NCBI RefSeq assembly: GCF_011045215.1
Contig: NZ_CP049203.1
DNA length: 4,727 nucleotides
Origin: Escherichia coli
GTDB lineage: Bacteria > Pseudomonadota > Gammaproteobacteria > Enterobacterales > Enterobacteriaceae
Strand: one strand, 5' to 3'
The notes beneath the pieces are model-generated. The model ran no database searches. It was not told the DNA's origin and saw only the letters and a program-made list of their open reading frames with translations. This document shows, piece after piece, positions 59 through 3,086 of the stretch; the first letter of the stretch is position 1, and the number at the start of each line of letters is the position of its first letter. The position numbers and the translations under genes were made by a program.

Positions 59-808
59 TTAACGCTTATCTCGCAACTGCGCAGCTGTATCTTTATTTCT
101 CTGATCACCTCTTTGATGTAAATTTCGATGGCTCTCTTGTGCAGCCGTCTCCCAGTCACCACGATTAACTGCAGCATTGAAATTAGGAAAATCTTTAGAT
201 AACTTAGGGATACCTAAATTAAACCCCATGTCAACCAACGCTGTTTTCCTTGAATTAGAAAAACCATCATAACCAGAATACAAAGAACGCAATCCCTTCT
301 CTGTCACTTGAACATCACTAATACATAAACCGATAACAGCATTATTTGATAAATGTAAGTTCATAGGAACTTGTCTAGAATCTTTTTTAAAATTATTAAA
401 CGCCTCTGTAATTTCCTCTTTAGATGCGGAAACCTCTTTTTCCATATCATCACCATGAGCATGCCATGTATGTGTTCTTGAAAATGGAAGGGATGCAGCC
501 ATATCAGGCGTAGATAGTAAATGACCGATTCCAACAGTAATATTTCCCTCACTGTCTTTGTACATTGTGTTTTTAAAACCTTCATGAGATTTCAAATTAT
601 TAACACACATAGTCATATAAAAACCATCATAACTCCTAGTGGAGGAAATATTTATGTGTGTCTTATCAGAAATGCCCTCATGACTATTCCCTCCAGAGTG
701 TCCACCATAGCTACTATGATTATCACCATCATAACTATGAATCGTGCCATAAGGGGTATCATGATCGTGCCATCCCGGACCTTGATTAGAACTTTCAATA
801 CCGCTCAT
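59..808 (-). CDS. T4-type lysozyme (GH24 muramidase) domain protein with Gly/Ser/His-rich N-terminal extension, 249 aa; candidate SOS-inducible cell-wall-degrading bacteriocin
   Basis: Long ORF in AT-rich DNA. Start set at ATG 808-806 (Met31 of the 279-aa track ORF) because AGAGGA lies 8 nt upstream and the earlier Met codons are upstream of the LexA box; stop TAA at 61-59. Residues ~85-249 align by eye with T4 lysozyme: SHEGFKNTMYKDSEGNITVGIGHLL vs T4L [25 protein letters not shown], with Glu, Asp and Thr at T4L-equivalent spacing (E11/D20/T26); C-terminal RKTALVDMGFNLG and DWETAAQ match T4L RRAAINMVFQMG and WDEAAV. Confidence 0.85.
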   Translation of the reverse strand: MSGIESSNQGPGWHDHDTPYGTIHSYDGDNHSSYGGHSGGNSHEGISDKTHINISSTRSYDGFYMTMCVNNLKSHEGFKNTMYKDSEGNITVGIGHLLSTPDMAASLPFSRTHTWHAHGDDMEKEVSASKEEITEAFNNFKKDSRQVPMNLHLSNNAVIGLCISDVQVTEKGLRSLYSGYDGFSNSRKTALVDMGFNLGIPKLSKDFPNFNAAVNRGDWETAAQESHRNLHQRGDQRNKDTAAQLRDKR

Positions 809-1115: not shown

Positions 1116-1340
1116 ATTTACCATAATCCCTTAATTGTACGCACCGCTGAAACGCTCTCAGACGCTTTCTGACGCAAAAACCGTAAAAAGAGATGTTTTC
1201 CCCCGGGTAAACCGAAAAAATGCGTCAGGAACGTTTTCAGCGCGTTGCATGACTATGCATGAAACTGAATGGCGATCGGTTTGGGCGCGTCCGGTGTCTC
1301 AAAGGCTTATTTTCGGATGTTTTCGTCCTCCGGCGTCGTT
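1116..1340 (-). other. cer: cer-like Xer site-specific recombination (multimer resolution) site: XerC/XerD core 1116-1145 plus ~190 bp accessory region
   Basis: Minus strand 1145-1116 reads GGTGCGTACAA-TTAAGGGA-TTATGGTAAAT, identical to the ColE1 cer XerC arm, 8-bp central region and XerD arm as I recall them. The accessory sequences would extend rightward on the + strand; the far boundary is approximate. Confidence 0.75.
1245..1262. promoter_or_regulatory. Candidate ArgR box within the cer accessory region
   Basis: ttGCATgactATGCAtga resembles the ARG box TnTGAATwwwwATTCAnw (two half-sites, 4-bp spacer) and lies about 100 bp from the XerC arm, where cer carries its ArgR site. The match is imperfect. 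Confidence 0.3.
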
Positions 1341-1367
1341 TTTCCGGCTCCTCCTGGTGGCCAGAAG

Positions 1368-1582
1368 CAGCACCGTAACGGTGCCTGCCTCACAGTGCTG
1401 GATCCAGCACCGCAGCACCGTAAGCAGCACCGTAAAGGGAAAATCCAGCCACAATCCAGCACCATAACAGGCACCGTTACAGTGCCTGTTGTTGATTAAC
1501 ACCATGATTAATAAGGATTAGCACTGTAGCAGTGCCGGTTACAGTGCTTGATCCAGCCACAATCCGGCACCGTTGCGGTGCT
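1368..1582. repeat. Dense cluster of short palindromes and direct repeats built on GCACCG / CAGTGC, flanking an AT-rich core (1487-1520)
   Basis: CAGCACCGTAA x3 (1368-1378, 1413-1423, 1425-1435). Palindromes: gcaccgt-a-acggtgc (1370-1384), perfect 16-bp gtgctggatccagcac (1395-1410), ggcac-N7-gtgcc (1470-1486), gcactg-tag-cagtgc (1521-1535), gcaccg-ttg-cggtgc (1567-1581). Direct repeat atccagccacaatcc[a/g]gcacc at 1443-1463 and 1551-1571. Confidence 0.6.
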
Positions 1583-1832
1583 GCGTATGGCGGAAAAACG
1601 TAAATTTTGCCACCTGAAATAATTCTAATGCACTGATTCCAAAGAGAAATCATGCAAAACGCAGTTTTGCGACAGGTGTGGTGACAGCAGGTCAGAGAAG
1701 GGGCGGATTCAGATATGAATCCGGGCCAGATCCGGGCATTAAGGGGTTCCCGGAAACATGAATAAGATTGCCAGTGCACGGGGATTTTTAATCCCCTGCC
1801 CCGTTGAGCCGCTCCACGGCGAAAAGGGGAAA

Positions 1833-1852
1833 GTAAAGTTAGCTAACTTTAC
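1833..1852. repeat. Perfect 20-bp palindrome gtaaagttagctaactttac; candidate operator or minus-strand terminator hairpin
   Basis: Self-complementary over all 20 bp. On the minus strand it is followed directly by TTTCCCCTTTTC and lies about 130 nt downstream of the stop of ORF 1981-2226. Confidence 0.5.
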
Positions 1853-1980
1853 ATGTCCTGCCCGGCGTTCACCGGTGTTTATGGCGGGGAACTGAACCAC
1901 CGGACGGGTGGAAACATGTGTATTCCTGTGTGCCCCTGTGTAATCCGGTGGATTTGTGTGTGCAAAATTCCGTAGCCGGT

Positions 1981-2226
1981 TCACCTGCGCCTCGCCGGCT
2001 GCCAGGTAAACGTGTTCTCTGCGGCACGATATGCTTTTGTTCGTTGAGCCTTTGCGCTTCTCGCTCTGCGTTCTGCCCGAATCATTCTCAAAACTTTTGC
2101 ACGCACTTTTCGCTTAACTTCCCGTGGCAGCTCTTCTTTGTCGGATAACTGCAACTGCGCAGCCTGTAAGGCATACGCATCACTGATACGCTTACGTTCT
2201 GCCACTGTCAGTTTCACCCAATACAT
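1981..2226 (-). CDS. Hypothetical small basic protein (81 aa), possibly ribbon-helix-helix-like DNA-binding or relaxosome-accessory remnant
   Basis: ORF with a G-rich Shine-Dalgarno-like sequence (GGGGGATAGGT) before the ATG. The protein is strongly basic and helix-prone (KRKVRAKVLRMIRAERRARSAKAQR). Its N-terminus WVKLTVAERKRISDAYA resembles the strand-helix start of RHH proteins. No firm homology; GC-rich DNA produces chance ORFs. Confidence 0.35.
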   Translation of the reverse strand: MYWVKLTVAERKRISDAYALQAAQLQLSDKEELPREVKRKVRAKVLRMIRAERRARSAKAQRTKAYRAAENTFTWQPARRR

Positions 2227-2891: not shown

Positions 2892-3086
2892 GTGAACAAA
2901 CAGCAACAGACCGCGCTCAACATGGCGCGATTCATCAAAAGCCAGAGCCTGACATTACTCGGGAAACTTGACGCTCTGGACGCCGACGAACAGGCCACCC
3001 TGTGCGAACGGCTACACGAACTGGCGGAAGAACTCTGTGACAGCGTACAGACGCACTTTGAGGCGCAGTACAGCACGGAACCATAA
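2892..3086 (+). CDS. rop: Rop/Rom, RNA I-RNA II pairing modulator of ColE1-type replicons (64 aa, GTG start)
   Basis: MNKQQQTALNMARFIKSQSLTLLGKLDALDADEQATLCERLHELAEELC aligns along its length with pMB1/pBR322 Rop (MTKQEKTALNMARFIRSQTLTLLEKLNELDADEQADICESLHDHADELY, from memory). It is oriented toward the origin as in pBR322. Stop TAA at 3084-3086; GGAGA/GGGAGA precedes the GTG. Confidence 0.9.
   Translation: MNKQQQTALNMARFIKSQSLTLLGKLDALDADEQATLCERLHELAEELCDSVQTHFEAQYSTEP

Follow-up and report, generated by a model that had tools for sequence, protein, structure and literature searches.

The window analyzed here (the whole stretch of 4,727 nucleotides, from Escherichia coli contig NZ_CP049203.1) carries, at positions 1368-1582, two sets of palindromes and direct repeats arranged around an AT-rich segment, and the locus raises the question of which protein such an array would serve and in which process. 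A sequence-only reading had left several answers side by side, namely an oriT or nick region, possibly recognized in trans, a remnant of such a site, iterons, and a single-strand initiation site. Our comparisons of the array with plasmid records, of its units with the binding sites of a conjugation protein, and of its flanks with the F plasmid indicate that it is most probably the TraM-binding module of an orphan F-like oriT, located on a small ColE1-type plasmid that lacks a relaxase.

Composition of the Repeat Array

All the palindromes and repeats attributed to 1368-1582 by the earlier reading were found again in the sequence. The three-copy repeat is CAGCACCGTAA, at 1368, 1413, and 1425; the perfect 16-bp palindrome is GTGCTGGATCCAGCAC (1395-1410, with its GGATCC center at 1400); and four short palindromes of the GCACNG-N3-CNGTGC type, built as 6+3+6 or 7+1+7, occupy 1370-1384, 1471-1485 (with one mismatched pair), 1521-1535, and 1567-1581. 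Besides, a 21-bp direct repeat, ATCCAGCCACAATCC(A/G)GCACC, is present at 1443-1463 and 1551-1571 with 20 of the 21 positions identical, and the AT-rich segment (1487-1520) has the reported composition and holds TGATTAA at 1493 and 1505.

The clustering of these motifs exceeds chance. Thirteen of the 18 GCACYG/CRGTGC hexamers of the window fall inside 1368-1582, and the densest 215-bp stretch obtained in 200 composition-preserving shuffles held 3.3 hexamers on average and eight at most. Likewise, ACNGT, which is the most enriched palindrome-with-N 5-mer in the window, occurs in ten exact copies in 1360-1590, against 0.84 expected and a maximum of six in 2000 shuffles. A promoter scan found no sigma-70-like promoter inside the array of the window; in pSE11-2, a large plasmid with the same array, promoter-like sites facing traM overlap it, as consensus matches only. 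The whole window was also scanned at the Rfam gathering thresholds and matched no family, RNAI included, so that no structured-RNA explanation arises.

A Small ColE1-Type Plasmid Without a Relaxase Gene

The window reads as a small ColE1-type plasmid, with Rom at 2892-3086 and flanks common to thousands of ColE1-like plasmids, and positions 1116-1145 of its minus strand hold what we take to be the 30-bp XerCD core of ColE1 cer. Both ends of the window belong to a cargo module of low GC content, and the open reading frames comprise one of 249 aa with a Phage_lysozyme domain, its 159-aa neighbor, Rom, and several ORFs without support. Neither a relaxase, nor a Rep, nor a mating-pair gene was found in the window by the ORF list and by NCBIfam scans of ORFs of at least 80 aa, in agreement with what the earlier reading had stated for relaxase and Rep.

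The Array Occurs Beside traM in Conjugative Plasmids

The repeats were searched across related plasmids, as the sequence-only reading had proposed, by blastn with 1340-1610 and 1340-1680 as queries against 72,556 plasmid records (PLSDB), and they proved to be conserved in 71-72 records, consisting of 21 small and about 46-50 large plasmids. The small plasmids (3.8-11.8 kb) were matched end to end, and the large ones, the pSE11-2 group, were matched from about 1392/1415 to 1680. Conjugative MOBF/MPF_F types are assigned to 44 of the large plasmids, and 16-17 of the carrier records are typed as non-mobilizable by MOB-suite. The carriers belong to Escherichia, except for two Salmonella records, and one of the searches adds a partial match in Citrobacter.

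In all 11 large-plasmid loci inspected, the array fills the gap between traM and the transglycosylase (SLT) gene of the leading region, which is the place of oriT in F (record NC_002483). Projected onto the window, the leading region would follow on the right, and traM would lie on the left and be read toward the left. Judged by this homology, the array makes up the accessory-protein half of an entire oriT of the F-like type, which would extend over about 1360-1684. The proposal of an oriT recognized in trans is thereby strengthened, both by the homology to the traM-to-nic part of oriT and by the lack of a relaxase in the window, and the repeats, which had been taken for possible relaxase-binding sites, are most likely sites of the accessory protein TraM instead.

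The same genomic context bears on a role in replication or segregation, in which the repeats would be iterons, a parC-like centromere, or a single-strand initiation site. Two repeat sets around an AT-rich core do resemble such elements, but the window has no gene for a Rep, for ParR/ParM, or for a protein of similar kind, its replicon is of the ColE1 type (Rom, RNA-primed origin), and in the large plasmids the array adjoins traM and never rep or par genes. Since a Rep/Par gene is missing and the neighbor in relatives is traM, we reject the iteron and single-strand initiation options of the earlier reading together with the par one, and hold any role of this kind to be extremely unlikely.

The large plasmids carrying the array encode what we call the cognate TraM, a protein that scores above the NCBIfam cut-off for the TraM equivalog. 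It shares 30% identity with F TraM and aligns over its full length with the TraM chain of pED208 in PDB 3ON0 (E = 4.6e-6). Its residues 1-32, which include the DNA-contacting beta-strand, are invariant across plasmids of E. coli, E. albertii, and Salmonella, and the sole change in the N-terminal domain is V33A, present in one of five plasmids. Identities of at least 95% to this protein were found in 47 PLSDB records, of 60-80% in a single record, and below 60% in thousands; on the basis of this distribution, the cognate TraM is a discrete allele, and the 47 records come close to the count of array-bearing large plasmids. Moreover, the array is confined to plasmids with this one TraM allele or to small plasmids that also have the nick region, and it is missing from the F-like plasmids with a different TraM allele, which number in the thousands, since blastn matched nowhere else. 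Within the library searched, no paper deals with the pSE11-2 group as regards its oriT or its TraM. For this unstudied allele, ACNGT in 6-bp phase represents a candidate unit of DNA recognition.

Phasing and Block Structure of the ACNGT Units

Three sites in the stretch from the traM promoter to nic are occupied by TraM, and a site of high affinity is made up of four short palindromes (GANTC in pED208 and A(G/C)CG(G/C)T in F), of which one tetramer reads alternate motifs 12 bp apart (PMC3159463). The array of the window shares with pED208 sbmA the presence of four palindrome-with-N units per 24-bp site and the 12-bp distance between alternate units, whereas the unit itself is GANTC in pED208 and ACNGT in the window, where binding is predicted. 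When one mismatch at most was allowed, ACNGT formed nine pairs at 6 bp, six at 12 bp, and four at 18 bp. The units sit within GCACNGT, mostly in 6-bp phase, on either side of the AT-rich segment, and two blocks (IV and V) each hold, at the sequence level, four ACNGT-type units in this phase. Symmetry and phasing suggest that ACNGT, rather than, for example, GCACNG, would be the contacted unit.

The array can be divided into six blocks (Table 1). Block I belongs to a portion of the array that some relatives have lost or carry in replaced form. Block II is formed by ACAGT...ACCGC around the 16-bp palindrome, and block III by two copies of CAGCACCGTAA that lie 12 bp apart (unit pair 1417/1429). 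The units of block IV (1461-1483) read ACCAT, ACAGG, ACCGT, and ACAGT, and a plasmid of E. albertii carries in this block an in-phase duplication of 12 bp, equal to two units. On the other side of the AT-rich core, block V holds ACTGT, GCAGT, CCGGT, and ACAGT in phase (1523-1545), and block VI (1567-1581) is GCACCGTTGCGGTGC, with two units (1569-1579).

Several units of the window are degenerate or solitary, and among relatives the N position is often substituted (ACC/TGT, ACA/GGT). The mean non-majority counts were 0.90 at fixed positions, 1.50 at N, and 0.83 in spacers, so the classes differ weakly, and this per-position conservation is weakly informative because block V has been replaced wholesale in three relatives.

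Table 1. Features of the putative F-like oriT in the window, with the observations on which each assignment is based.
Feature	Position	Strand	Basis
TraM-type unit array, putative sbmA/B/C equivalent	1368..1582		Counts, phasing, homology, association with one TraM allele
Block I, palindrome GCACCGTAACGGTGC	1370..1384		Two ACNGT units 6 bp apart (1372-1382); left-most site
Blocks II and III	1392..1435		Phasing and alignment with relatives
Block IV, sbmA-like 24-bp site	1459..1485		Four units in 6-bp phase; architecture compared with sbmA of F and pED208
AT-rich core	1487..1520		74% A+T; position equals IHF-b of F oriT
Blocks V and VI, sbmC-equivalent position	1521..1581		Phasing; about 100-160 bp from the putative nick
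Spacer, presumed TraY (sbyA-like) and IHF-a region	1583..1653		Conserved with large plasmids; TraY site by position only
Inverted repeat GCAAAACGCAGTTTTGC	1654..1670	+	Directly 5' of the putative nick; counterpart of GCAAAAACTTGTTTTTGC in F
Putative TraI recognition sequence and nick, GCGACAGGTGT^GGTGA	1669..1684	+	Similarity to F, TraI covariation, identity break
Post-nick segment	1681..1760	+	Conserved in small plasmids, 93% in the closest; about 62% to large plasmids

The Putative Nick Region and Its Relation to F

The plus strand of the window reads GCAAAACGCAGTTTTGCGACAGGTGT^GGTGA at 1654-1684, i.e., the hairpin GCAAAACGCAGTTTTGC followed by GACAGGTGT^GGTGA, and F reads GCAAAAACTTGTTTTTGCGTGGGGTGT^GGTGC around nic, with the nic itself as TTTGCGTGGGGTGT^GGT. 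The hairpin and GGTGT^GGTG are shared by both, and 27 of 38 positions around nic (71%) are identical to F, and because of these likenesses we place the nick at T1679^G1680, where the plus strand, which would be the strand to be transferred, would be cut. The strand with the nick motif reads from the traM side toward the leading region.

The order of elements in F oriT (nic, IHFa, sbyA, sbmC, IHFb, sbmB, sbmA) and their approximate distances are also matched by the window, in which blocks V-VI lie 100-160 bp, the AT-rich core 160-190 bp, and blocks I-IV 195-310 bp from the putative nic. It follows from this correspondence in position that the AT-rich core, which had been proposed as a nick or melting site, is better compared to IHF-b, and the nick as placed here, at 1679^1680, lies outside the array. 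Two IHF-like sites on the minus strand, each with one mismatch, to WATCAANNNNTTR at 1497-1509 and to the consensus at 1626-1638, fall at the places expected from F oriT, although the window-wide number of such hits is no higher than chance. Outside the nick region, however, no similarity to F oriT was detectable: identity to F is 65% at -80..0, 31% at -160..-80, and 7% in the 80 nt after nic. Furthermore, the repeat unit is ACNGT/GCACNGT in the window and A(G/C)CG(G/C)T in F, the cognate relaxase domain is about 53-57% identical to that of F, and the oriT of the window, unlike that of F, has no adjacent traM.

The placement of the nick receives support from two further comparisons. When six small and five large plasmids were aligned, with segment-wise identities as a complement, the window proved to be 82-97% identical to the large plasmids as far as the nick; over the following 80 bp the identity dropped to about 62%, and farther on to about 20%, and the blast matches of all large plasmids end at position 1680 of the window. 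The second comparison concerns the nick allele, i.e., the four bases before GTGT^, which is mainly TGAT or ACAG in the large plasmids (ATAG in one) and ACAG in all small plasmids, including the window. When the relaxase domains of two TGAT and two ACAG plasmids were compared, residues 98-220 of TraI were 57% identical between the two kinds of helper, whereas residues 1-97 and 221-308 were 97-98% identical; as judged from these sequences, the four bases beside the putative nick co-vary with a swapped TraI segment of the helpers. Residues 193 and 201, inside this segment, are those that Harley and Schildbach reportedly identified in 2003 as determining the specificity of F and R100; F has Q/R at these positions, the TGAT group Q/L, and the ACAG group K/R. 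TGAT and ACAG provide a natural pair of TraI/nick-site alleles for the study of relaxase specificity.

State of the Array in Small Plasmids

The array of the window is 34 bp shorter than that of most relatives, with a deletion between GTAAGCAGCAC repeats, in the region of blocks II and III (1392-1435), that is likewise found in the closest relative, and in EC14 and KOr024 the left end of the array is shortened by 37 and 43 bp, respectively. These losses could be read as the signs of a decaying relic, i.e., a descendant of an F-like oriT that would be non-functional here and passively carried. The length variation of the small plasmids, however, lies wholly in the traM-proximal third of the array, and from block IV to the nick they are colinear with the large plasmids, with this segment intact in all 21 of them; besides, the hairpin and GCGACAGGTGT^GG are identical in all small plasmids despite their differing backbones and cargo. 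It has been shown that sbmC, the site closest to nic, is the most important for transfer, while sbmA and sbmB autoregulate traM (PMC3159463), and the deletions are limited to the part that, in F, serves autoregulation and not transfer. The traM-proximal loss would therefore fit a transfer function that is retained on a plasmid to which the autoregulation of traM is irrelevant.

The co-residence of small and large plasmids was examined as well. A small plasmid and a cognate large plasmid occur together in five strains, as confirmed by strain name. The nick allele is ACAG on both plasmids in SCU-478 and in RHB06-C19 (as read on _2 of its large plasmids _2 and _3), and it is TGAT on the large and ACAG on the small plasmid in RHB19-C13 and in E. 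marmotae RHB35-E2-C08, the latter with two large plasmids. In RHB15-C07, the allele was read on the large plasmids only, two of them and both TGAT, and the small plasmid was assigned by accession adjacency only. A mismatch of a large TGAT with a small ACAG plasmid is counted in three of the five co-resident strains, RHB15-C07 included, and in such strains the resident relaxase may not be the cognate one. Overall, about 7 of about 12 host strains, as estimated from accession blocks, have a cognate large plasmid, a plasmid type seen in only about 13 of the 5426 complete genomes of E. coli, although these co-residence samples are non-independent, a single farm survey having supplied many of the isolates. 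In RefSeq complete genomes, four of the small plasmids lack a cognate large plasmid in the same genome, and this, like the mismatched nick alleles, speaks against a plain one-to-one dependence on the helper.

The mismatched nick alleles in three strains and the hosts without a cognate helper are also compatible with a relic, but co-residence with the cognate plasmid far exceeds the background rate. Hence, of the options given by the sequence-only reading, that of a remnant is opposed by conservation and cognate co-residence, and we consider it unlikely, while still leaving it some weight in the form of a relic.

Another possibility is that the array acts as a decoy for TraM, by which a multicopy array would titrate the TraM of the helper and alter traM autoregulation or helper transfer, with mobilization being secondary. 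In F, TraM represses its own promoter via sbmA and sbmB, and here homologous sites are found on a ColE1-type, presumably multicopy, replicon whose nick allele is often mismatched with that of the resident helper. Yet every small plasmid retains the nick region and the hairpin, which would be needless for a pure decoy, and the sites that were lost are the promoter-proximal ones, which in F are the high-affinity autoregulatory sites. As the primary role, titration therefore appears very improbable, even though it is compatible with a TraM-binding module of an orphan oriT and may be a side effect of mobilization.

Proposed Mode of Mobilization

The reading of the array as the TraM-binding part of an F-like oriT leads to the following proposal, in which the binding of TraM, IHF, and TraY, the exact position of the nick, and mobilization itself are all deduced from sequence comparisons. 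The small plasmid would cohabit a donor cell with an F-like conjugative plasmid of the pSE11-2 group, whose TraM tetramers would occupy the ACNGT units cooperatively, these being arranged two to four per group and in 6-bp phase. IHF would bend the DNA both at the AT-rich core (1487-1520) and at another site close to 1626-1638, and TraY would dock between the array and the nick. TraI of the helper would recognize GCGACAGGTGT^GG behind the 1654-1670 hairpin and cut the plus strand at 1679^1680, and DNA-bound TraM would link the relaxosome to the coupling protein TraD. The plus strand would then be transferred in the 5' to 3' direction, with position 1680 entering first and the array last.

Relation to Known Orphan oriTs

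Plasmids that carry an oriT without a relaxase (pOriT) have been defined as a class and surveyed in E. coli (PMC10123127). Among them, pEC156 is a mob-less ColE1-like plasmid with an F-type oriT beside cer that is mobilized by F (PMC4743918), and pSe-Kan, for which in-trans mobilization has been demonstrated experimentally, has an F-type orphan oriT, pKPN2 being of the same kind (PMC9282650). Together with pColG, these plasmids share with the window the small ColE1-type replicon, cer, rom, the lack of a relaxase, and an F-like oriT near cer. In contrast, the oriTs of the pEC156/pSe-Kan type are 86-90% identical to F oriT, an identity that the allele of the window does not reach, and the oriT of the window belongs, as far as its sequence indicates, to a different TraM/TraI specificity group, that of pSE11-2. 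The window therefore carries a probable orphan oriT of the known pOriT kind with an uncharacterized allele of the TraM sites.

Allelic TraM/sbm systems are already well known from F, R1, R100, and pED208 (PMC3159463). A similar strategy is seen in Staphylococcus aureus, where non-conjugative plasmids copy the oriT of the conjugative pWBG749 family and the subtypes of these oriT mimics track the specificity of accessory proteins (PMC8136818); relaxase family, host, and sequence are unrelated to those of the window. Altogether, the established picture of F-like conjugation and of oriT hitch-hiking is unchanged by our results, which add a probable transfer route for a plasmid family that is mostly typed as non-mobilizable by current tools. 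Chimeric oriTs and the specificity of TraM were reportedly addressed by Fekete and Frost in 2000.

Possible Exchange of Arrays at the Nick

Some sibling small plasmids have kept the nick region and carry a wholly different array, made of AGCCCAC repeats, which was found in nine small plasmids and in no large plasmid of PLSDB. The break in identity lies 1 nt from the putative nick, which suggests that the chimeras arose from relaxase-catalyzed joining at nic and not from ordinary recombination. How orphan oriTs are acquired could be learned from this abrupt boundary and from the array replacement in the siblings, and we regard this putative nick-bounded modular exchange of specificity cassettes as the most interesting thread of the present analysis. 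It is conceivable, although we hold it to be rather doubtful, that the array is one interchangeable "helper-specificity cassette" among small plasmids that collect orphan oriTs. In this respect, plasmids of the pEC156 type have an additional IncI/R64-like oriT, and the window appears to carry four orphan oriTs, consisting of the F-like one, one IncP-like core, and two IncI-like cores.

Additional oriT-like sequences in the window

Besides the F-like oriT, the stretch of the window between the ColE1-type landmarks cer and rom carries three further putative orphan oriT sequences (one IncP-like and two of the IncI/R64 type), which brings the predicted total in this stretch to four. The first of these appears to be an orphan oriT core in addition to the F-like one. 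BLAST aligned window positions 1838-1881 (95.5% over 44 bp) with the sequence between traJ and traK in IncP-like conjugative plasmids of the MOBP/MPF_T type, for example pTHO-015-2; in IncP plasmids such as RP4, oriT is located in this region. The two IncI/R64-type copies are in direct orientation, and both match sites located directly upstream of the mobA(nikA-like)-traI operon in MPF_I conjugative plasmids, namely pUMNK88_Hly and an 86-kb Klebsiella plasmid.

Coordinates of putative additional oriT cores and of the cargo module in the window
Feature	Window position (strand)	Sequence characteristics
IncP-like oriT core	1833-1866	inverted repeat GTAAAGTTAGCTAACTTTAC, then ATGTCCTGCCCGGC
IncI/R64-type oriT core, copy 1	2323-2374	11-bp inverted repeat, then AACATATCCTGTCCCG
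IncI/R64-type oriT core, copy 2	2446-2498	11-bp inverted repeat, then AACATATCCTGTCCCG
Low-GC cargo module	59-808 (-), 852-867, 4204-4683 (-)	32-39% GC

TraI variation and the nick-proximal allele

Comparison of the TraI relaxases of four large conjugative helper plasmids, two with the TGAT allele of the nick-proximal bases (L023 and L025) and two with the ACAG allele (L024 and L026), revealed a 123-residue segment (residues 98-220) that is 57% identical between the two groups, the rest of the relaxase domain being 97-98% identical. In these four plasmids the type of this segment tracks the nick-proximal allele, and the segment has the appearance of a recombined specificity cassette.

Array variants and neighboring genes in other plasmids

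The nick region of the window (GCGACAGGTGT^GG and approximately 50 bp upstream) is common to nine sibling small plasmids (positions 40-335 in L022, NZ_CP077599.1, and eight others), where AGCCCAC repeats around an AT-rich core replace the ACNGT array. In PLSDB, the AGCCCAC array was found only in these nine small plasmids and in none of the large ones, which leaves no candidate in that collection for its presumed helper.

Some large F-type plasmids, namely L005 (NZ_CP083264.1, 6267-9519) and three similar large plasmids, carry a truncated small-plasmid version of the array that spans window positions 1300-1559, without block VI and the nick. This copy lies outside the tra region, between the genes for a ProQ/FinO-family protein and an AAA ATPase, and may be left over from the integration of a small plasmid.

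In the closest small relatives, a gene for a 124-aa protein of the ProQ/FinO family (L010, 1189-1563, minus strand; NCBIfam FinO/ProQ, E ~1e-12) lies on the right side of the oriT; the corresponding place in the window contains just an 81-aa ORF (1981-2226, minus strand) with no family match.

Cargo module and plasmid backbone

The low-GC cargo module contains a 249-aa ORF with a Pfam Phage_lysozyme domain (residues 73-234, E = 4e-8), preceded by a LexA-box-like sequence (CTGTGTTTATATACAG). A further ORF in the module, of 159 aa, is hydrophobic at its N-terminus. The module seems to pair the gene for a lysozyme-type (pesticin-like) bacteriocin with the corresponding immunity gene. In PLSDB, Megablast returned no match to the module, coverage of the window running from approximately 1116 to approximately 4000. 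Although the window has its Rom gene and origin region in common with ColE1-like plasmids, an Rfam scan of its whole length at gathering thresholds returned no families, and thus no RNAI either.
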